DNA of 64,000 bases, taken from assembly GCA_023247255.1 (NCBI GenBank), contig JAHFGV010000005.1, positions 6,067 to 70,066 on the forward strand, in the 5' to 3' direction. Under the pieces are notes generated by a model. That model was not told where the DNA came from, searched no databases, and saw nothing but the letters and a program-made list of their open reading frames with translations. How positions within the stretch are numbered: position 1 is the stretch's first letter; each line of letters starts with the position of its first letter. The translations under genes and the position numbers were made by a program. Source of the stretch: Candidatus Omnitrophota bacterium. GTDB taxonomy: Bacteria > Omnitrophota > Gorgyraeia > Aquiviventales > Aquiviventaceae. Below are positions 3,248 through 53,888 of this stretch, one piece after another.

Positions 3248-3287
3248 CAGGTTACAGGAAAATGCCCTGTTTGCTCAAAGCTAACAA

Positions 3288-3550
3288 TGGGGGGAACGGG
3301 GTGGGAGACGTGGGGCGTGGGAGAACAGATTACAAGAGATAAAAAGTCCTACAACCGGTTTTAAAAAAGGGTTCTTCTGGTTTTGCAGTGGGTAAAAGGA
3401 GCAACACTTCCCTCTCCCAAAGGGAGAGGGAGAAGGGCATGCCCATATATCCCGGAAGCGCCTAAAAAAGAACGGGCGATGTCTAGCTTTCAAGATTTAT
3501 GGAGTGCTATTCGCACTTCCCTCGCCCCCCGCCCCGTTCCCTTTACCCCG
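3288..3550. repeat. split G-rich/C-rich inverted repeat in the nuoJ-nuoK intergenic gap
   Basis: G arm ggggaacggggtgggagacgtggggcgtgggagaacag (3288-3328). Complementary C arm cttccctcgccccccgccccgttccc (3515-3550). The exact 10-mer gggaacgggg / ccccgttccc is shared. The 356-bp nuoJ-K gap is unusual. Confidence 0.4.
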
Positions 3551-3603
3551 GATGCGGGTTTTTCAGCAGTCTGCTGATAGCAAGGATATTGAAACGTAAA
3601 CTC

Positions 3604-3903
3604 ATGGAGCTGCGGATTCTACTTTGGTTGTCTTGCGGTTTGTTCTCGATTGGGGTCTACGGGATGCTGACTCGGCGACACGCGATCGGTCTTTTGCTTG
3701 CCCTGGAACTCATGCTCAACGCCGCGGCCTTGAACTTCGTGCTCTTTAGTCGATGGTTCGGCCATGTGCAGGCGCAAGCCTTCGCGCTTTTCATCATCGC
3801 CCTGGCTGCCTGTGAGGCGGTGGTTGGGCTTGCGATTATCATCAGCCTGGCCCGCAGCGCCCACACCGTACTCGTCGATGAAGCGAGCCTCTTAAAAGGA
3901 TGA
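3604..3903 (+). CDS. nuoK: NADH-quinone oxidoreductase subunit K
   Basis: Internal start MELRILLWLSCGLFSIGVYGMLTRRHAIGLLLALELMLNAAALNF gives a 100 aa NuoK-like protein. The annotated upstream extension is unlikely to be real. Confidence 0.85.
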   Translation: MELRILLWLSCGLFSIGVYGMLTRRHAIGLLLALELMLNAAALNFVLFSRWFGHVQAQAFALFIIALAACEAVVGLAIIISLARSAHTVLVDEASLLKG

Positions 3904-5816
3904 AGATGCTTTTGTGGATTCCAGGCCTGCCTTTGTTGGCCGCTGCGATATTGCTGCTCGTTGGCAGACGCTTGGGACGCTGGAGTTCTCATGTGGCGAT
4001 TGCCGCCATGAGTGGTTCGGCGGCGTTGGTCTTCTTGATAGGGAGCTGGATTCTCGATGGTCATCGGTTAGGGGTGCGCTGGATATGGTTGTCCGCGCAA
4101 AAGCCACAGTGGTCGCTGGGTCTGGCCGTCGACGGATTGAGCTGGATCATGCTCGTTGTCGTTACCCTGATCGGTACGATGATTATGGTCTACTCAGTGG
4201 GCTACATGCACGCAGACGCACGGTTCAGTCGGTTTTTCGCCTACCTGTGTCTTTTCTGTGCTTCCATGCTGGGGTTGGTGATGGCCGATCATTTTTTACT
4301 GCTCTATGGCTGCTGGGAGCTCGTCGGGCTGTGTTCCTATTTATTGATCAGCTTCTGGTTTGAAAAGCCGGCTGCAGCCGCCGCGGGCCGGAAGGCTTTT
4401 ATCACGACTCGCATTGGGGATACGGGGCTGTTGCTGGGCATCTTTCTCTTAGCCCTGACGGTTGGCGATCTTCGTCTTCAGAATCTGGAAGTTATCCGTG
4501 CGCAGTTGAGCGAACGTTCCTGGCTCTTGACTCTGATCAGTACATTGATTTTTGTGGGAGCCATGGGCAAGTCCGCGCAAATTCCTCTTCATGTCTGGCT
4601 GCCGGATGCGATGGAGGGTCCGACTGCCGTATCCGCCCTCATCCATGCAGCGACGATGGTAGCGGCCGGGGTGTATCTTGTGGCGCGCAGTTTTGTTTTG
4701 TTCACCCCGCAGAGCCTCCAGGGGGTGTTGATCGTCGGACTGCTTACCCATCTTTTGGCCGGGACCGTCGCCCTGACGATGACCGACATCAAAAAGGTCC
4801 TGGCCTACTCGACCATCAGCCAGTTGGGGTTGATGATGACGGCCCTGGGTCTTGGGGCGCAGGCGGCGGCGATGTTTCACCTGTTCACTCATGCGTTCTT
4901 CAAGGCACTTTTGTTTTTGGCGGCCGGCAGCGTCATCCATGCTACCCATCAACAGGATCTTTCCCAGCTCGGTGGACTCTTCCGAAAGATGCGCGCGACG
5001 GCGATTTTGTTTCTCATCGGCGTTCTGTCGATGAGCGGTTTTCCCTTTCTGAGCGGATTCTGGAGCAAGGATGCAATCTTGGCGGCTGCGTTACACGATG
5101 TGCCGGCGCTCTTCTGGACGTTACTGGCTGGGGCGGTTTTGACAGCGAGTTATACATTCCGGTTGTTTCTGCGGTGCTTTCACGGCGAGTCGGCAGACGC
5201 AAGAGGGCACACAGCACACAGCGTGCATGAATCGCCGGCTATCATGCTTATACCCATGGCGGTCTTGGCTCTTGGAGCGGTCTTCGCCGGTCTTTTAGGA
5301 TCGCCGTGGCTGCATCAGCCGATCTTTCATCTGCTCGGTTCAAAACGCCTGCATGAAGGGATCGATGTGCCGATTTTGCTTTTGTCGAGCGGCGCTGTGG
5401 CTGTCGGATTCGCTCTGGCGTGGCTTTCGGGTTTCAAACGCCAGCTGCACCTGCCTGAATCCTTGCGTCCGTTGGGTCAATTTTTCTATCGGCTTTCGGT
5501 GAACAAATACTATGTGGATGAGGCTTATGACCGCTGGATCGTTCAGCCGTTTCAAGCAGCGACCCGCCGATTGTCCCAGTTTGATCAGCGCGTCATTGAT
5601 GGCAGCGTCAATGGGGTCGCCGAGTTGGGCTGGAAGCTCGGTCAGGGGAAAGAGCGTTTTGACGCCAAGGTTATCGATCGGCTCGTCAACGGCATTGCCA
5701 GTTCCACGCGCCGGATGGCGATGGGGCTTCGGCTGATTCAAACCGGTGTGATTCAAAACTACCTGCTGGCTGTTGTGGTCTCAGTGGTTGTGTTCGCCTG
5801 GCTGTTGCGTCCATAA
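3900..5816 (+). CDS. nuoL: NADH-quinone oxidoreductase subunit L
   Basis: 638 aa with NuoL/Mrp antiporter-like motifs (WLPDAMEGPTAVSALIHAATMVAAGVYL). Overlaps the nuoK stop. Confidence 0.9.
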   Translation: MKMLLWIPGLPLLAAAILLLVGRRLGRWSSHVAIAAMSGSAALVFLIGSWILDGHRLGVRWIWLSAQKPQWSLGLAVDGLSWIMLVVVTLIGTMIMVYSVGYMHADARFSRFFAYLCLFCASMLGLVMADHFLLLYGCWELVGLCSYLLISFWFEKPAAAAAGRKAFITTRIGDTGLLLGIFLLALTVGDLRLQNLEVIRAQLSERSWLLTLISTLIFVGAMGKSAQIPLHVWLPDAMEGPTAVSALIHAATMVAAGVYLVARSFVLFTPQSLQGVLIVGLLTHLLAGTVALTMTDIKKVLAYSTISQLGLMMTALGLGAQAAAMFHLFTHAFFKALLFLAAGSVIHATHQQDLSQLGGLFRKMRATAILFLIGVLSMSGFPFLSGFWSKDAILAAALHDVPALFWTLLAGAVLTASYTFRLFLRCFHGESADARGHTAHSVHESPAIMLIPMAVLALGAVFAGLLGSPWLHQPIFHLLGSKRLHEGIDVPILLLSSGAVAVGFALAWLSGFKRQLHLPESLRPLGQFFYRLSVNKYYVDEAYDRWIVQPFQAATRRLSQFDQRVIDGSVNGVAELGWKLGQGKERFDAKVIDRLVNGIASSTRRMAMGLRLIQTGVIQNYLLAVVVSVVVFAWLLRP

Positions 5817-5857
5817 ATTCCGCAGTTTTTAGCAGGATGCTAAAAGACCCACGGGAT

Positions 5858-6300
5858 GCTAGAGTGCCTAACATAATGATCGCATGGTCGCGCTGGGCGT
5901 AATTGCTTCGATGCGCAAGACGCCAGGAGGAAGCCGTACTGATCCATAGAAGTACGGTGACGACGAGCAACGCAGCGCGGCGAAGCAATTCCGCCCAGCC
6001 CTTAGGGTTGCACTGAAAGATGGCCATCTGCTGCGTCGTTCCTCCTCGGCGTAGCGCTCCTTCGGCTACGCCTTCGTCGTCACTCCTTGCATCTGGGCCA
6101 TCTTTCAGTGCAACGCGGCCATGTGCTCATTATGTTAGGCACTCTTAGGCTGCTCAAAAAGGTGCGAGATGCAAGGCGCAGCTCGATTCGGCTGAGTCCT
6201 TTGACTATCGCTCAGGACTCAGCCCTGAGCAACGTCGAAGGGCTGAGGAGGCGCGTACTTTCAAGTACGCTGACGAAGCCGTCAGGCATACAACGCAGCA
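5858..6300. repeat. nested long inverted-repeat (MITE-like) element in the nuoL-nuoM gap
   Basis: 5858-5890 (agagtgcctaacataatgatcgcatggtcgcg) is the reverse complement of 6117-6148. 6005-6030 pairs with 6090-6118. The centre ggcgtagcgctccttcggctacgcc is palindromic. Further hairpins lie at 5893-6000 and 6190-6225. Confidence 0.5.
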
Positions 6301-6340
6301 GATGTGTCTTTTTCAGCAGCCTGCTTAGGGAGATGCGCAC

Positions 6341-7792
6341 ATGCTAAGTGTTTTGTTACTGTGTCCACTCATCGGGATGTTGGTGGTCTTGGCCTTGCCC
6401 AAGACAGCCGTGCGGGCCATTCGGTTTGTCGCTTTGCTCGCAAGCGGGCTGGCCTTGGCTTTTGCGATCCAGTTGTTCCAGTTCTTCCGGCCACAAGAGG
6501 CAATCCAGTTAGTCGAGCGGATAGTCTGGATCCCGCAGATGCGCATTTTCTATCACGTCGGTGTGGATGGGCTTAGCCTGCCTCTTGTGTTTTTAACCGT
6601 TCTGTTAGGGTTCATCGCCTGTCTGGCTTCCGCCTCCATCACCGAGCGTCAGAAAGAGTACTACGCCCTGTACCTGCTGTTGGAGATGGGGATGCTGGGC
6701 ACGTTCATGGCATTGGATTTTTTCTTGTTCTATGTCTTCTGGGAAGTGGTGTTGGTGCCGATGTATTTCTTGATCGGCATCTGGGGCGGCGGTCGTCGGG
6801 AATACTCGGCTTTTAAGTTTTTTGTCTACACCCTCGCCGGCAGCCTGGCGATATTGTTGGCCATCTTGATGCTTTATTTCCGCACGGGGACCTTTGATAT
6901 GGTTGCCCTTGCGCAGATGGGACCGTTGCTAGAGCCGGATCTCCAACGACTGCTTTTTGTGGCGTTCTTCTTGGGATTCGCCATCAAGGTTCCGGTTTTT
7001 CCATTCCACACCTGGCTTCCGGATGCGCACGTCGATGCCCCCACCCCGATCAGCGTCCTGTTGGCCGGGGTGTTGCTGAAAATGGGAGGCTACGGCTTTT
7101 TCCGTATCGCCTATCCTATCTGCCCTGAGGGGGCGCAATGGGCAGCAGGGGCGATGGCCGTTTTGGGGATGATCAACATTGTCTACGGCGCTTTCGTTGC
7201 GATGGCCCAGACCGATTTTAAGAAACTCGTCGCCTACTCTTCCGTTTCCCATATGGGATTTGTCCTGCTTGGGCTGGCGAGCCTTCAGACGGAAGGCGTC
7301 AACGGGGCATTGTTGCAGATGTTCAATCACGGCACGATCACCGGTGGCATGTTCTTGTTAGTCGGCGTGCTCTATGATCGGGCGCACACCCGAGACCTCA
7401 ATGCCTTCGGCGGGCTGGGCGCGCACATGCCTAAGTTTTCAGGATTGCTTATTTTTTTCGGGCTGGCTTCTTTAGGGCTTCCGGGTTTGAGTGGATTTGT
7501 GGGGGAATTTTTGTCTCTGCTGGGGGCCTTCGGGGTCTGGCGATGGCAGACGGTCGTCTCAGTGCTAGGAATCGTCGTCGCGGCGGCCTATATCCTCACG
7601 GCGATTCAGCGAGTCTTGCTGGGGCCGCCAAACGAACGCTGGAAAAATCTGCCGGATGTCAATCCGAGAGAGATGGCCAGCTTGATCCCGCTCGTTGTGC
7701 TTATCTTGGCGTTGGGGGTTTATCCTTTGTTATTGATCGATCTTCAGGATGGAGCGGTTCAGCAGTTTATCGCCCACGTCAAAGGACCGTAG
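6341..7792 (+). CDS. nuoM: NADH-quinone oxidoreductase subunit M
   Basis: 483 aa, NuoM-like (FPFHTWLPDAHVDAPTPISVLLAGVLLKMGGYGF). Confidence 0.9.
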   Translation: MLSVLLLCPLIGMLVVLALPKTAVRAIRFVALLASGLALAFAIQLFQFFRPQEAIQLVERIVWIPQMRIFYHVGVDGLSLPLVFLTVLLGFIACLASASITERQKEYYALYLLLEMGMLGTFMALDFFLFYVFWEVVLVPMYFLIGIWGGGRREYSAFKFFVYTLAGSLAILLAILMLYFRTGTFDMVALAQMGPLLEPDLQRLLFVAFFLGFAIKVPVFPFHTWLPDAHVDAPTPISVLLAGVLLKMGGYGFFRIAYPICPEGAQWAAGAMAVLGMINIVYGAFVAMAQTDFKKLVAYSSVSHMGFVLLGLASLQTEGVNGALLQMFNHGTITGGMFLLVGVLYDRAHTRDLNAFGGLGAHMPKFSGLLIFFGLASLGLPGLSGFVGEFLSLLGAFGVWRWQTVVSVLGIVVAAAYILTAIQRVLLGPPNERWKNLPDVNPREMASLIPLVVLILALGVYPLLLIDLQDGAVQQFIAHVKGP

Positions 7793-43766: not shown

Positions 43767-45365
43767 GTGGCGGCTCCGGTCAACCGGCCGATGACGGAAG
43801 CGTTGAGGATGCGTCTCGGTATGCTGATTGCGGTGGTTGCGCTAGGCTCAGGGTGCGCCAAGGAGCCATCCGCAACACTCTCGAGCGCGAAACCGTCTGT
43901 GACCCCGCAGATCGTTGAAATGGGCCGGCGGCTTTACAACAAGCAGTGCGCGGTCTGTCATGGCCCGAAGGGCGCGGGCGACGGCCAGGCAGCTTACCTC
44001 CTCTATCCTAAGCCGCGCGATTTCACACAAAACGAATTCCGACTTGTCTCGACCAGCACGATGCAGGCCACCGATGAAGATCTGTTTCTCACCATTACCC
44101 GTGGGACGCCCGGCTCCGCGATGCCCTCCTGGGAGACGCTGACGTCGGAGCAGCGCTGGGCGTTGGTGTATTACGTTCGCCACCTCACGGGTGCGAGCGA
44201 ATCCATTGATCCAGCCTCAATCATCCACGTCCCTCCAGAGACGCCGAAGACCCCCGAGAGCATCGCGCGTGGCCGCCAAATTTTTGTCCAGGCGTGCGCG
44301 TCCTGCCATGGGCCACAAGGCCGCGGTGATGGGCAGCAGGTCATGGCGGACAACGCCGGATATCCTATCAAGCCACGCGATCTCACCGCAGGCGTCTTTA
44401 AGGGGTCGTCTGAGAGCAACGATTTGTATTACCGAATTGTCGCTGGATTGCCGGGCAGCCCGATGCCAAGTTACGCTGACGTCTACACCGACGAGCAGTT
44501 GTGGGATCTCATCCACTACGTTCAATCGCTCGTACCGTCGGGAGTCGAGGATCGCGTCCGCATGCATGCACGGAGCATCCGCGCCCATCGGGTCAGAGGC
44601 GACATCCCATTAGAACCGACAGCGAAAATCTGGAGCACGAGACAACCGGTCTCTATCGCCCTCACACCATTGTGGTGGCGCGATCACCGAGTCGAAGGGG
44701 TCGAGGTCAAAGCGTTGCACAACGGCAAAGAGCTCGCGCTTCAATTGTCATGGAACGACCAGACGCGTGACAACTCGACCCTCACCCCGCAGGCGTTTTC
44801 CGATGGTGTCGCGGTAGAATTCTCCTTAGAACAGGACCCGCCGTTCTTTGGGATGGGTGACGCAAACGGAGTCGTGCAGATATGGCACTGGAAAGCCTCC
44901 TGGCAGGAGGACCTCAAGGGCTGGCAGGACGTGGAGACCGCCTACCCCAATGCTGCCGTGGATTGGTATCCCGCACAGCGTGACTATCAGCACGGTGAAC
45001 CCTCCGAGGTGAGCCAGTCGAGGACGGCCTCGCAGGACCCACGGTTCATGGGCGGATGGGGAGCGGGCAATCCCCTCTCCGATCCGAATCGAACGTCAGC
45101 GGCTGAGGAAGCGATGGCCAAGGGATTGGGGACGCTGACCTCACGCGCACCTTCGATGCAACGGATCCAAGCGGATGGTCTCTGGCAAGACGGTCGGTGG
45201 CAGGTCGTGCTGCATCGACCGCTTGCGCCCAACGAGGAGGGGGATCTGAGGCTGAAGCCTGGGCAGCAAGTCAGCGCGGCGTTTGCGATCTGGGATGGCC
45301 ATGCCGGGGATCGCAACGGCCAAAAGAGCGTGTCGATTTGGAACATCTTGGAGCTGGAGCGATAG
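43767..45365 (+). CDS. dihaem cytochrome c fused to an NxrC/EbdC-like (DMSO-reductase type II gamma subunit) domain
   Basis: Two CxxCH motifs (CAVCHGPKGAGDGQ, CASCHGPQGRGDGQ) in tandem cytochrome c domains. The C-terminal roughly 250 aa (WWRDHRVEGVEVKALHNGKELALQLSWND ... VQIWHWKASWQ) resembles the ethylbenzene dehydrogenase / NxrC gamma family. Confidence 0.6.
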   Translation: MAAPVNRPMTEALRMRLGMLIAVVALGSGCAKEPSATLSSAKPSVTPQIVEMGRRLYNKQCAVCHGPKGAGDGQAAYLLYPKPRDFTQNEFRLVSTSTMQATDEDLFLTITRGTPGSAMPSWETLTSEQRWALVYYVRHLTGASESIDPASIIHVPPETPKTPESIARGRQIFVQACASCHGPQGRGDGQQVMADNAGYPIKPRDLTAGVFKGSSESNDLYYRIVAGLPGSPMPSYADVYTDEQLWDLIHYVQSLVPSGVEDRVRMHARSIRAHRVRGDIPLEPTAKIWSTRQPVSIALTPLWWRDHRVEGVEVKALHNGKELALQLSWNDQTRDNSTLTPQAFSDGVAVEFSLEQDPPFFGMGDANGVVQIWHWKASWQEDLKGWQDVETAYPNAAVDWYPAQRDYQHGEPSEVSQSRTASQDPRFMGGWGAGNPLSDPNRTSAAEEAMAKGLGTLTSRAPSMQRIQADGLWQDGRWQVVLHRPLAPNEEGDLRLKPGQQVSAAFAIWDGHAGDRNGQKSVSIWNILELER

Positions 45366-45367
45366 CC

Positions 45368-48300
45368 ATGTATCTGACGCGTCGTCAGTTTTTAAAACTC
45401 TCAGGAGCTACTGGAATCGGGTTGTATCTCGCCTCACGCGAGGTCTCGCTCTGGGCGCTGGAGCCGGTGAGCGAGATAGAGAATCCGCTCGCCTACTATC
45501 CTTCGCGAGACTGGGAGAAGCTCTACCGCGACCAGTACCGGTATGACAGCACCTTCTCCTGGGTCTGCTCGCCCAACGACACGCACGCCTGCCGGGTCCT
45601 GGCGTACGTGAGAAACGGCGTCGTGGTGCGTCTTGGCTCAGAGTACAACTATGAAACCTACGCCGACCTGTACGGAAACAAGGCCACTCCCAACTGGAAC
45701 CCGCGCCAGTGCGCCAAAGGTTTCACCTTTCATCGGCTCATCTACGGTCCTTACCGCTTGAAACATCCCATCATCCGTAACGGTTGGAAGCGCTGGGCCG
45801 ACGACGGATTCCCAACGCTGACCCCTGAGAAAAAGACACAATACAAGTTTGACTCGCGCGGCACAGACACTTTTGAAAAAATCAGTTGGGAGGATATCTA
45901 CGGCTACATTGCCCGCGGCCTCATCGCTATCGCTACGCGCTACAGCGGCGAGCCGGGCATAACACTCCTGCGCGCACAGGGCTATCCCGAGGAAATGATC
46001 CAAGCGATGGGTGGGGCCGGGACACGGACCTTGAAGTTCCGCGGCGGGATGGGCCTGCTTGGGGTGTTTGGCAAGTACGGCATGTACCGACTGGCGAACA
46101 CGATGGCGCTTCTCGATGTCCACCTGCGCGGTGTCAAGCCTGAGGAGGCGAAGGCCGGACGGACGTGGTCCAACTACACGTGGCACGGCGATCAGGCGCC
46201 GGGGCATCCCTGGGTGCATGGATTGCAGAACGCCGACTGCGATTTCAACGACCTTCGTTTTTCCAAGCTGATCATCCAGGACGGCAAGAACCTCTGCGAG
46301 AACAAGATGACCGACTCGCACTGGTTCATTGAATGTATGGAGCGTGGGGCAAAGCTGGTGACGATCGCGCCCGAATACAGCCCGCCGGCGTCGAAGTCGG
46401 ACTATTGGATTCCGATTCGCCCGCAGACCGATGCCGCGCTCTTCTTGGGTATCACGCGCCTCATGATCGACCGAGGCTGGTACGACCGGGAGTTTATCCT
46501 GAACTTCACCGACTTTCCGCTCTTGGTGCGAACCGACACCCTGCGGCGCCTTCGAGCGAATGAGATCCTGCCGGGCTACCAAGGGCAGTTGTCCAAGGAC
46601 GGCCCAAGCTACAAGCTCCAGGGATTGAAGGACGAGCAGTATGCCAAGTTGGGGGACTTCGTCGTCTGGGATGAATCCTCCGGAGCGCCCGCCGCAATCA
46701 CACGCGACGACGTCGGCAAGCGTCTCGTACAGAAAGGCGTCCACCCCGCGCTTGAAGGGACGTTTACACTCAACACGGTGGATGGGAAGCGTATTGAGGT
46801 GATGACGCTCTTTTCGCTCTATCAACTCCACCTCAAGGACTACGACCTTGATACCGTGCATGAGATCACTCGCGCGCCGAGAGAGCAGATCGAACAACTC
46901 GCGAAGGACATCGCCACTATCTCGCCAGTCGCGATCCACCAAGGCGAGGGCATCAACCACTACTTCCACGCCACCGAGGCCAATCGCGCCGCCTATCTGC
47001 CGCTGATGCTGACCGGCAACATCGGCCAACGCGGTGCTGGCTGCTACGGATGGGCCGGCAACTACAAGGCTGCGCTTTTCCAAGGCTCTCCATGGACCGG
47101 TCCGGGATTCAAAGGCTGGGTGGCCGAGGATCCGTTTGAGCCTAACCTTGACCCCAACGCGCACGGGAAAGACATCCACGCGCACGCCTACTTCAAGGAC
47201 GAAGAGCCGGCTTATTGGAACCACGGGGATAAGCCGCTGATCGTCGAGACGCCCAAGGGCGGCCGCAAGGTCTTCACCGGCAACACTCACATGCCCACAC
47301 CCACAAAGGCGATGCTTTTCACCAACGTGAACCTCATCAACAATGCCAAGTGGGTCTATGAGATGCTCAAGAACGTCAACCCGAATGTCGAGATGATCCT
47401 TTCTATCGACATCCAAATGACCGCTTCGATCGAATACGCGGACTTAGCACTGCCGGCGAATAGCTGGCTTGAGTTCGAGGGGCTGGAGGTTACGGCGTCA
47501 TGCTCCAACCCTTTCCTCCAGATCTGGAAGGGCGGGATTCCGCCTGTGTTCGACAGCCGGGATGATCTGGTGATTCTCGCCCAGATCGCCGAAGCGCTCG
47601 GCAAGGAAATCGGCGATACGCGCTGCAGCGACTACTGGAAGTTTGCGCTCGAGGGCAAGCGCGAAGTCTACATCCAGCGGCTGCTGGATTCCTGCACGAC
47701 GACGGTTGGCTATCGTCTGGAGGACATCATGGCGGGCAAGTACGGGCCGCCGGGGGCGGCACTCATGCTCTTTCGCACCTATCCCCGGATCCCCTTCTGG
47801 GAGCAGGTGCACGAGGACTTACCTTTCTACACCGACCACGGGAGGCTTTCGGCCTACACCGATGTGCCCGAGGCGATCGAGTACGGCGAGAATTTCATCG
47901 TCCACCGTGAAGGTGCGGAGGCGACACCCTACCTGCCGAACGTCATCGTCAGCAGCAACCCGTACATCCGCCCCAACGATTACGGTATTCCCTTATCGGC
48001 GGAGCACTGGGATGACCGCACGGTGCGCAACGTGAAGATGCCGTGGGATCAGGTCAAAGGCACAAAGAATTTCCTCTGGGAAAAGGGCTTTCAGTTTTAC
48101 TGTCTAACTCCCAAGAGCCGCCATCGCGTCCACTCGCTTTGGAGCAACGTGGACTGGCACCAAATCTGGGACTCCAACTTCGGCGATCCCTACCGGATGG
48201 ACAAACGCAGCCCTGGTGTTGGCGAACACCAGGTTCACATGAATCCCCAGGCGGCAAAGGATTTAGGGATCAATGACGGCGATTACGCCTATGTCGATGC

Positions 48301-48820
48301 GAATCCAGCAGATCGTCCCTACATTGGGGCGAAACCTGACGATCCGTTCTATCGGGTGGCGCGGCTGATGCTGCGTGTCAAGTACAACGCAGCCTACCCG
48401 TACAACGTCGTCATGATGAAGCACGGGACCTATATTGCCACCGAGAAATCTGTGAAGGCCCACGAGACGCGCAAGGATGGACGGGCCCTCTCCGCTGACA
48501 CCGGCTACCAGGCGAACTTCCGCTACGGGTCGCAGCAGAGTGTCACGCGCAACTGGCACATGCCGATGCACCAGACCGACTCACTCTTCCACAAGGCGAA
48601 GGTCTTCATGGGCTTTCTCTTCGGCGGCGAGGCGGACAATCACGCGGTCAACACGGTTCCGAAAGAGACGCTGGTGCGCGTGACGAAAGCGGAAGACGGC
48701 GGGTTGGGTGGCCAGGGCGTGTGGGCTCCGGCGACGACCGGCTATACCCCGGCCAACGAGAACGACACGATGAAGAAGTACCTCGAAGGCCGGTTCGTTG
48801 AGGAGAGCAAGAAATGGTAA
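45368..48820 (+). CDS. nxrA: periplasmic molybdopterin oxidoreductase alpha subunit, nitrite oxidoreductase/NarG-like (type II DMSO reductase family)
   Basis: 1150 aa with a twin-arginine signal MYLTRRQFLKLSGATGIGL. N-terminal Fe-S motif region (CSPNDTHAC). Large Mo-bisMGD domain. Size and neighbourhood (nxrB, narJ-like, nxrC-like) match a periplasmic NXR. Confidence 0.8.
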   Translation: MYLTRRQFLKLSGATGIGLYLASREVSLWALEPVSEIENPLAYYPSRDWEKLYRDQYRYDSTFSWVCSPNDTHACRVLAYVRNGVVVRLGSEYNYETYADLYGNKATPNWNPRQCAKGFTFHRLIYGPYRLKHPIIRNGWKRWADDGFPTLTPEKKTQYKFDSRGTDTFEKISWEDIYGYIARGLIAIATRYSGEPGITLLRAQGYPEEMIQAMGGAGTRTLKFRGGMGLLGVFGKYGMYRLANTMALLDVHLRGVKPEEAKAGRTWSNYTWHGDQAPGHPWVHGLQNADCDFNDLRFSKLIIQDGKNLCENKMTDSHWFIECMERGAKLVTIAPEYSPPASKSDYWIPIRPQTDAALFLGITRLMIDRGWYDREFILNFTDFPLLVRTDTLRRLRANEILPGYQGQLSKDGPSYKLQGLKDEQYAKLGDFVVWDESSGAPAAITRDDVGKRLVQKGVHPALEGTFTLNTVDGKRIEVMTLFSLYQLHLKDYDLDTVHEITRAPREQIEQLAKDIATISPVAIHQGEGINHYFHATEANRAAYLPLMLTGNIGQRGAGCYGWAGNYKAALFQGSPWTGPGFKGWVAEDPFEPNLDPNAHGKDIHAHAYFKDEEPAYWNHGDKPLIVETPKGGRKVFTGNTHMPTPTKAMLFTNVNLINNAKWVYEMLKNVNPNVEMILSIDIQMTASIEYADLALPANSWLEFEGLEVTASCSNPFLQIWKGGIPPVFDSRDDLVILAQIAEALGKEIGDTRCSDYWKFALEGKREVYIQRLLDSCTTTVGYRLEDIMAGKYGPPGAALMLFRTYPRIPFWEQVHEDLPFYTDHGRLSAYTDVPEAIEYGENFIVHREGAEATPYLPNVIVSSNPYIRPNDYGIPLSAEHWDDRTVRNVKMPWDQVKGTKNFLWEKGFQFYCLTPKSRHRVHSLWSNVDWHQIWDSNFGDPYRMDKRSPGVGEHQVHMNPQAAKDLGINDGDYAYVDANPADRPYIGAKPDDPFYRVARLMLRVKYNAAYPYNVVMMKHGTYIATEKSVKAHETRKDGRALSADTGYQANFRYGSQQSVTRNWHMPMHQTDSLFHKAKVFMGFLFGGEADNHAVNTVPKETLVRVTKAEDGGLGGQGVWAPATTGYTPANENDTMKKYLEGRFVEESKKW

Positions 48821-53172: not shown

Positions 53173-53888
53173 CGCGCGTCAGGGTTCTTTGGGGTGTGAT
53201 CGCGTAGGGTACGTGGTGGGATGACAATTCGAAACGACGCTCCGAGTTCAGCGACCTAAGCTCGCGTGATGGCGGGGATGGTCCCTGAACCCCTGTCCCA
53301 CACGCAACGCCGCGTGTAGGACCGGGCCGGGAAGGAAACGACTCGGCCTCCTCGTGTTCGGAAAGGAGACGGCAGGCTGGAGTATCGTCAAGCCAGCTTC
53401 TCTTTCCACACGAGGAGCTGGCTTGTTTCGTCACTGAGGGACGGTACCCGATGCAGGAACAACGTGTGACGCTCTGGTGCAAGGTGTTGGGTCGGCTGGT
53501 TGAGGTGGTCATCGCCAGGAATCACCATGCCCAGCCACCAGTCCCAGGGGTCCCTGAAGGCTGGAAGGTAACGGAGTGTCTGGAGAAAGACACGCCGTGT
53601 TTTGGCAAGGGCTGTCCGTTCACTACGGATGGTGGAGAGTCCCCCTTTGGGGAGGCGGGCGAGCTGCCCGATCTCTCCTCTGAGTCGTTCGATCCGCTCG
53701 CTGAACCAGGGTCTGAGGGAAAGGGTAGTTGACCCCACCACCTGTCTGTCAAGGCAGCTCCGTTGTTCCACGCTGACAGGATGCCTTGATGGACGTGACA
53801 GGGAATCGGACACGATGTTTCGGTATACAGTAAAAAGATTAGTAGGCACGTCCAAGACCGCCGTCTGCGGTTCCAGCCAGGTGGTGCG

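Follow-up and report, generated by a model that had tools for sequence, protein, structure and literature searches.

The stretch of DNA analyzed here (the window) comprises 64,000 bp of contig JAHFGV010000005.1 from a Candidatus Omnitrophota bacterium (assembly GCA_023247255.1). It carries a nuo operon in which the spacer between nuoL and nuoM is 524 bp long (5817-6340) and highly palindromic. The initial annotation described this spacer as one multi-level hairpin inside the operon and implied a special structured or small RNA of nuo. The multi-level structure was recovered; however, it proved to be two adjacent insertions (5862-6144 and 6148-6324) rather than a single feature. The first of these is very probably a 283-bp miniature inverted-repeat transposable element (MITE), inserted beside a probably older, related hairpin module that we call block 2.

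Repeats and folding of the nuoL–nuoM spacer

Every repeat previously described for the spacer was recovered, with coordinates shifted by a few bases. The outer arms, originally placed at 5858-5890 and 6117-6148, were found by the repeat finder to pair at 5861-5895 and 6111-6145 (35 nt with 89% complementarity; the outermost 19 nt pair perfectly). The inner pair, originally placed at 6005-6030 and 6090-6118, was likewise found to pair, at 6007-6025 and 6096-6114 (19 of 19 positions, repeat finder), and forms the right inner hairpin. The left inner hairpin pairs 5892-5916 with 5975-5999 (25 nt, 88%) and contains the palindrome halves gctgggcgtaattgcttcg and cgaagcaattccgcccagc that had been quoted earlier. 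The remaining palindrome, ggctgagtcct...aggactcagcc, was assigned by the repeat finder to 6190-6200 and 6214-6224 (11 of 11). An additional pair absent from the initial annotation, 6147-6161 with 6308-6322 (15 nt, 93%), closes block 2. Two occurrences of each arm, and no more, were found in the window, as against 0.00-0.01 expected from dinucleotide shuffles, which excludes chance as the origin of the nested inverted repeats.

The minimum free energy (MFE) of the whole spacer was −258.6 kcal/mol, with z = −9.95 for the plus strand and z = −9.84 for the minus strand. This near-equal folding of the two strands argues for palindromy at the DNA level rather than for a strand-specific RNA. The small open reading frames (ORFs) of the spacer had no match to any Pfam family, which rules out small protein genes; the structure is non-coding and the overlapping, mutually antisense ORFs are spurious, as had been supposed. 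An intrinsic terminator was also ruled out, since no terminator-like (T-run) site was found in the spacer; the sole promoter-like match lay on the opposite strand. In a second public assembly an identical NuoM is preceded by an equal 524-bp gap, and a third contig has a layout compatible with a 524-bp spacer; the structure is therefore no assembly artefact.

These data bear directly on the possibility that the spacer encodes a nuo-specific regulator, either a cis-acting RNA element (for instance a processing site or an attenuator) or a small RNA gene. The position inside the operon, where the sequence must be transcribed if nuoM and nuoN are to be expressed, its extreme stability, and the length and structure of other nuo spacers in this genome are all compatible with such an RNA. 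However, the Rfam 15 covariance models gave no match on the spacer up to E = 10, scans of the whole window and of 19 family loci placed the element in no curated RNA family, no terminator was seen, and the two strands fold equally well. Moreover, the same nuoL–nuoM junction lacks the element in relatives (it is a plain 40 bp in the nearest one examined), whereas the same element is found in other phyla in dozens of unrelated intergenic contexts, in either orientation and with target-site duplications. We therefore regard a nuo-specific RNA as extremely unlikely.

A family of elements sharing the terminal repeats

Other copies, for which the initial annotation had suggested a search, were found in contigs of other genomes and nowhere else in the window. 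The search was by exact match of the 19-nt outer arm AGAGTGCCTAACATAATGA in reference-genome contigs, and the family counts given here hold among the matches listed. The arm matched more than 115 stretches in about 40 assemblies, and almost all of the hosts were metagenome-assembled genomes (MAGs) of Betaproteobacteria/Burkholderiales from groundwater, sediment, and soil; at least 26 loci came from one MAG, JACQOK01. Relaxed matching in the fetched loci yielded 48 complete elements, all non-coding and from 46 to 445 bp in size. Eighteen were about 50 bp long (46-52 bp) and 22 were 263-268 bp, and the other forms measured 62, 123, 175, 298, 391, 413 (three copies), and 445 bp. The ~50-bp minis consist of the ends only and carry TWA flanks like those of the longer forms. 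The terminal repeat GAGTGCCTAACATAATGA was invariant or nearly so in the 22 aligned ~266-bp copies, and both arms of the window element agreed at 19 of 19 positions. Terminal inverted repeats of 18-22 nt bound the window element, and dozens of genomes have them in identical form. About 40 further ends were cut off at the ends of contigs or stored stretches, and many matches lay at contig ends, as would be expected if a multicopy repeat breaks short-read assemblies; the remaining orphan ends (27 inspected) were truncated remnants. The end sequence was not found in any paper in our literature search, and the MITE family is apparently undescribed.

Some copies have further features. The 413- and 445-bp forms (L061:2402-2820, L076:3299-3713, L085:3757-4171, and L077:7018-7465) carry a second palindromic element of ~147 bp, with ends ...GGAGCAGG ... 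CCTGCTCC..., at the same relative site of the H unit (see below), directly after the motif GACAAAGT / GCAACGACG. These forms are a MITE within a MITE that later spread as a composite. The 391-bp form (L066) has a different insert of ~125 bp. In a Planctomycetota MAG with 47.5% G+C, a ~155-bp element (L099:6530-6700) has one perfect and one diverged family end, TTA flanks on both sides, and an interior unrelated to the family; it is a second indication of family ends outside Betaproteobacteria. Seven loci come from bins labelled Streptomyces or Streptomycetaceae (L015, L021, L035, L069, L030, L103, and L114), with 63-67% G+C like the betaproteobacterial contigs, and five more element-bearing MAGs are labelled Bordetella parapertussis; both labels are probably wrong.

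The window element is a divergent member of the family

Family elements proper run GAGTGCC...GGCACTC, and the interior of the window element, like that of the ~266-bp copies, consists of two convergent hairpin units (H units), the right one being the reverse complement of the left kind. The window element folds as a three-way junction, with z = −12.4 as RNA and z = −11.5 as DNA when folded alone. In BLAST comparisons with other copies only the terminal 20-35 nt were similar; the architecture is nonetheless shared. A covariance model, R1, was built from betaproteobacterial H units and contained no window sequence. It identified H1 on the plus strand and, with filters off, H2 on the minus strand (Table 1), as against scores of 9.7 bits for H1 and 13.7 bits for H2 in the opposite orientations. 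We conclude that the window element is a genuine, divergent member of the family with its units arranged head-to-head.

Table 1. Positions of the nuoL–nuoM spacer components in the window, with the evidence for each
Feature	Position	Strand	Evidence or remarks
nuoL	3900..5816	+	Gene upstream of the spacer; Pfam Proton_antipo_M / Proton_antipo_N, E = 3.5e-79
Residual original spacer	5817..5858	.	Contains an 8-bp hairpin, 5826-5846 (TTTTAGCA-GGA-TGCTAAAA)
CTA, left flank triplet	5859..5861	.	Degenerate target-site duplication; TWA on either side is the rule in the family
MITE proper, 283 bp (very probable)	5862..6144	.	Ends match >115 stretches exactly; architecture common to 22 aligned ~266-bp copies
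Left terminal inverted repeat, GAGTGCCTAACATAATGA	5862..5879	+	Columns invariant in the 22-copy alignment; outer stem runs on to 5895
H1 hairpin unit	5888..5999	+ (sense)	R1, 37.1 bits; E = 8e-08 in the whole window, 1.8e-09 locally
Central linker, CCTTAGG	6000..6006	.	Family counterpart is CC-NNNN-GGG
H2 hairpin unit	6007..6116	- (sense)	19/19 basal stem; R1, 35.5 bits, E = 5e-09
Right terminal inverted repeat (TCATTATGTTAGGCACTC on the + strand)	6127..6144	-	Repeat finder and pattern matches
TTA	6145..6147	.	Serves the MITE as right target-site duplication and block 2 as left flank
Block 2, third, enlarged H-like hairpin module	6148..6324	+	Outer stem 6147-6161 / 6308-6322
Extra perfect 11-bp hairpin in block 2	6190..6224	.	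Repeat finder; makes up part of the excess in length over H1 and H2
TTA, right flank of block 2	6325..6327	.	Within TGC-TTA-GG; fits the family target C-TWA-G
GGGAG, likely nuoM ribosome-binding site	6328..6332	+	8 nt before the ATG; outside the folded blocks (MFE)
nuoM	6341..7792	+	Gene downstream of the spacer; Pfam Proton_antipo_M, E = 2e-75

Target-site duplications and the probable transposase type

The 3-bp flanks were identical on the two sides in 31 of 49 complete copies, mostly as TTA or TAA and once as TGA. When both sides were TTA or TAA, 30 pairs were direct and 4 were inverted, where about 52% matching would be expected by chance (p = 9.7e-06). The W base of TWA was independent of the orientation of the element, which demonstrates that the triplet is a true target-site duplication lying outside the element. 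The target extends to C-TWA-G, with C at −4 in 28 of 48 copies and G at +4 in 31 of 48. None of the 48 copies lay within a gene, at least 14 of them were positioned exactly on the stop codon of a neighboring gene, and the orientations of the neighboring genes showed no bias.

In the IS5 family, the IS1031 group inserts at a 3-nt site (PMC2516522). PIF/Harbinger elements, which are related to bacterial IS5, make TWA duplications, and NuwaII, another group in that superfamily, targets C-TNA-G (PMC4482050). The 3-bp insertion site, the TWA duplication, and the C-TWA-G target of the present family resemble these. By mechanism, the closest known elements would be the Tourist-like MITEs of the PIF/Harbinger–IS5 superfamily, which are likewise short, non-coding, and multicopy, keep their terminal inverted repeats, and give rise to deletion derivatives. 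Their interior, however, is a degraded transposon, whereas here it is a pair of convergent structured hairpin units, and a second type of end also occurs (see below). The family ends start with GAG, as do presumably those of the IS1031 group in ISfinder. A DDE transposase like those of IS5 / PIF-Harbinger elements probably mobilized the family; because no transposase partner was found, the superfamily is inferred from the duplication and the target. Such a transposase, supplied in trans, would bind the ends, cut with a 3-nt stagger, and paste the element into its target.

The same flanks are informative about two other mechanisms of mobility. In one, the hairpin element would be moved as single-stranded DNA by an HUH/Y1 transposase, either as a REP/REPIN element with RAYT or as an IS200/IS605-like element. 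REPINs are short multicopy palindromes (bioRxiv 10.1101/2021.07.10.451892). The family resembles them, and also BIME, ERIC, BOX, and RUP, in being short, intergenic, multicopy, palindromic, modular, and nested. The minis resemble REPIN doublets, with two inverted ~20-nt arms around a short loop, and the hairpin structure is kept, with mild strand asymmetry. However, the copies are flanked by a 3-bp direct duplication of a specific target, and the ends are true inverted repeats starting with GAG. To our knowledge, neither REP/REPIN nor IS200/IS605 elements make a target duplication. REPINs, moreover, go with a RAYT gene present in one copy; beside the copies of this family no RAYT or Y1 gene was noticed, although no systematic search was made. 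The family was therefore not assigned to REP/REPIN–RAYT, in which duplication is absent whereas here it is the rule, and we consider transposition by an HUH/Y1 enzyme very unlikely.

The other mechanism is recombination at an integron attC-like site. The core consensus of attC sites is RYYYAAC / GTTRRRY, and in these imperfect palindromes structure is better conserved than sequence. The element shares this pattern of conservation, and its sequences GCCTAAC (5866-5872) and GTTAGGC (6134-6140) agree with the two core boxes and are correctly inverted relative to each other. However, a degenerate 7-mer is estimated to match by chance with a probability of a few percent, the boxes are set back 4 nt from the ends and are not at a recombination point, and no integrase was seen nearby. 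In the 115 loci the copies are single, one element per locus, and dispersed, not in cassette arrays, and they have TWA target-site duplications. The family was accordingly not placed among attC sites, a reading to which we give almost no credence.

A conserved folded interior

Each H unit is about 105 nt long. Its basal stem of ~17-20 bp leads into an asymmetric internal loop (GCGAA on the 5' strand, GACAAA on the 3' strand), beyond which lie a covarying middle stem of 7 bp, a small loop of GCA / AA, and an apical stem of 8 bp closed by a 5-nt loop. In an alignment of 40 units, 86.7% of cells were paired, as against 29-38% when the partners were slid by 1-3 columns. The covariation score was 0.48, as against 0.05-0.15 in the slid controls, and none of 500 shuffles reached the observed value. 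Double changes were present in 27 of 39 pairs. The loop motifs were better conserved than the stems (1.52 bits for GCGAA and 1.60 bits for GACAAA, as against 0.92-1.16 bits). Sense-strand folds were more stable than antisense folds by 6 kcal/mol (p = 9e-08). G·U pairs outnumbered A·C by 88 to 31 when counted by cells; by columns the counts were 19 and 11 and the difference was not significant, so that this strand bias is suggestive by cells only and is not relied on.

A sister element at L017:1890-2160 contains the same convergent pair of H units, which R1 scored at 62.6 and 45.9 bits. Its ends differ from those of the family, GAGCCTGTTTCATCAATATCC...GGATATTGATGAAACAGGCTC, and its flanks are CTG and TGA. 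The hairpin cargo has therefore been combined with at least two types of end. No solo H unit outside a bounded element was found in about 790 kb of loci. Rfam at the gathering score gave no match on 18 family loci, and the only match in one betaproteobacterial copy was a chance miRNA with E = 1.5.

These properties raise the question of whether the H-unit pair, as RNA or single-stranded DNA, has a function of its own for which its structure is selected while it rides on transposon ends. It might, for example, bind proteins or serve in processing, to the advantage of the element or the host; such a function would be compatible with a MITE. The excess of pairing and covariation over the slid controls, the compensatory double changes, the unpaired loops that are better conserved than the stems, the greater stability of sense folds, the preponderance of G·U over A·C by cells, the reuse of the same pair between different ends in L017, and the survival of the architecture in the window despite lost BLAST similarity are all consistent with selection. 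Palindromes, however, can keep their pairing by template switching without selection, and the copies are related by descent, so that the counts are not independent. In addition, the ~50-bp minis lack the units and yet have TWA flanks consistent with transposition, the alternative ends are known from one example, and the searches for solo units and for an Rfam family were negative. We consider a selected function doubtful. It is also rather unlikely that the pair is a selected module carried as cargo by two or more types of end, spread across phyla, and exerting a specific effect on the nuo transcript; its range would take in Betaproteobacteria, the Omnitrophica-like host of the window and possibly, by ends only, Planctomycetota.

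Block 2 and the probable order of insertion

Block 2 resembles the H units in one orientation. Its local alignment with H1 gave z = 6.6 (reached by 0 of 500 shuffles) and that with the H2 sense strand z = 5.1 (1 of 500), whereas antisense alignments gave z of about 0. The motifs GATGCAAGG and CAACGCAGCAGATG are common to block 2 and the H units. R1 did not recognize block 2 as a full H unit, so its kinship to them rests on this orientation-specific local alignment alone, and no other copy of block 2 was found. It is flanked by TTA on the left (6145-6147) and on the right (6325-6327). Block 2 is probably an earlier insertion of a related element. The simplest history that would account for the sequence is insertion of block 2 into a GC-TTA-GG site, followed by insertion of the MITE into the left TTA copy. 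Removal of both insertions leaves a spacer of ~58 bp with the 5826-5846 hairpin and an intact ribosome-binding site. A motif related to that hairpin, TTTTT(C)AGCAG-NN-CTGCT, recurs at 6308-6326 and at 3561-3579.

Host lineage and weight of the evidence

The best homologues of NuoM were from Candidatus Omnitrophica, with at most 77% identity. For the ATP synthase beta subunit the best named matches were Candidatus Omnitrophica MAGs, with at most 89% identity, and the gene order, nuo then atp, matches that of Candidatus Omnitrophica relatives. The window thus comes from a host outside the Betaproteobacteria.

The nuoL–nuoM spacer differed from one relative to another. In L116, the nearest relative examined, it is a plain 40 bp. 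In L117:2897-3000 and L118:2663-2766 it is 104 bp and has an unrelated CAGAAGT-repeat hairpin, and in L119:560-814 it is 255 bp and has an unrelated G+C-rich palindrome. No family ends or H units were present in these 40-, 104-, and 255-bp spacers, and for this reason, as judged by sequence comparison, the window element is an insertion rather than a regulatory feature of ancestral origin. Palindromic elements seem to have landed repeatedly at this junction and to be tolerated there.

Several observations weigh against a MITE insertion. The window copy has CTA as its left flank but TTA as its right, so that one base of the duplication must have been changed or lost. No second copy was found in the window with exact or mismatch-tolerant patterns or with sensitive self-BLAST. 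A metagenome scan with the window-specific H2 stem gave five isolated chance matches, all within genes and missing the partner arm, and thus no further copy of the divergent subtype to which the window element belongs. No autonomous partner was found: among end pairs up to 4 kb apart with at most 3 mismatches in 115 loci, none exceeded 445 bp, the plasmid collection gave three chance matches only, and the viral contigs gave none. There is no strictly alignable empty site, the nearest relative being 77% identical in NuoM. The consequences of the insertion for nuo mRNA, discussed below, are predictions only. Finally, the host belongs to Omnitrophica, whereas nearly all other copies were found in Betaproteobacteria, so that either horizontal transfer or an unsampled subfamily borne by Omnitrophica must be assumed. 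Megablast of the window against the fetched family loci gave no match to the window's own genome. Ends identical to those of betaproteobacterial copies, together with an interior diverged beyond detection by BLAST, imply that a transposase recognizing these ends acted in this lineage, and transfer between co-habiting groundwater organisms is plausible. With all of these points considered, we still hold it very probable that 5862-6144 is a MITE.

Predicted effect on the nuo transcript

If nuoM and nuoN are expressed, the element would need to be co-transcribed within the polycistronic nuo mRNA. In their likely effect on the host, the closest known elements may be the Correia elements (CREE) of Neisseria. 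Correia elements have a 26-bp inverted repeat, a TA duplication, and a length of 100-155 bp, and are restricted to Neisseria; they are subject to RNase III processing and contain outward promoters. The present family is like them in being MITE-like, betaproteobacterial, located between genes or within operons, and co-transcribed, with long hairpins. The Correia terminal repeat TATAGTGGATTAACAAAAA... / TATAGTGGATTAAC... (PMC5039591) resembles TTAGAGTGCCTAACATAATGA in its AGTG, TAACA, and AA blocks. By hand alignment about 11 of 18 positions are alike, which is too weak for homology. Membership in the Correia family was rejected on the basis of the 3-bp TWA duplication, the sizes of ~50 or ~266 bp, the three-way junction, and the different hosts.

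Palindromic repeats such as BIME, ERIC, BOX, and RUP are able to affect mRNA stability. By analogy with Correia, REP/BIME, and ERIC elements, the very stable ~470-nt double-stranded block might be cleaved by RNase III or might stall exonucleases, and the stabilities of the nuoA-L and nuoM-N segments might thereby be uncoupled. Because there is no terminator and the nuoM ribosome-binding site lies outside the fold, expression of the downstream genes can continue.

Other structured sequences in the window

Two further nuo spacers are long and structured. The nuoI–nuoJ spacer (2423-2689, 267 bp) is rich in CATGA/GTCATG repeats and has inverted repeats at 2452-2495 / 2586-2629 (44 nt, 82%) and 2500-2523 / 2587-2610 (24 nt, 96%); this spacer of the nuo operon, too, holds a palindromic insertion. 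The nuoJ–nuoK spacer (3248-3604, ~357 bp) appears on visual inspection to have a long-range inverted repeat, GGGAACGGGG..., at ~3290-3322 and ~3515-3545, and it has an internal hairpin, ctctcccaaagggagaggg. The motif TTTTTCAGCAGTCTGCTGA at 3561-3579, upstream of nuoK (from ~3558), is similar both to the 5826-5846 hairpin and to block 2 at its right end (6308-6326).

A second family of hairpin repeats lies at 11774-11878, after an atp gene, and at 19284-19360, after a tRNA gene. Both sites have tandem CAATCGA heptamers in inverted arrays; AAATCGACAATCGAAAAT had 9 matches, as against 0.03 expected by chance. In style they resemble the hairpin of CAGAAGT heptamers that relatives have between nuoL and nuoM (L117:2897-3000). 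Elsewhere in the window, Rfam identified a Moco (molybdenum/tungsten cofactor) riboswitch at 53228-53385 on the plus strand (61.6 bits), and a 1207-amino-acid molybdopterin oxidoreductase is encoded at 45197-48820.

Implications

A puzzling 524-bp structured gap in a core respiratory operon is thus explained as two mobile-element insertions. For the annotation of this genome, two spurious ORFs and a false lead to a novel RNA are removed. The analysis also defines an apparently new MITE family, recognizable by its ends, the C-TWA-G target, the duplicated TWA triplet, and the existence of mini, standard, and nested forms. Its copies abound in Burkholderiales MAGs from groundwater and soil, whose assemblies they break, and recognition of the family should be useful for annotation and binning. 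Two questions are raised by these results: why compensatory changes preserve the folded interior, which is also reused with other ends, and how betaproteobacterial-type ends came to be present in an Omnitrophica-like genome from similar habitats. If the H pair is functional, it would represent a structured nucleic-acid module that spreads as transposon cargo.

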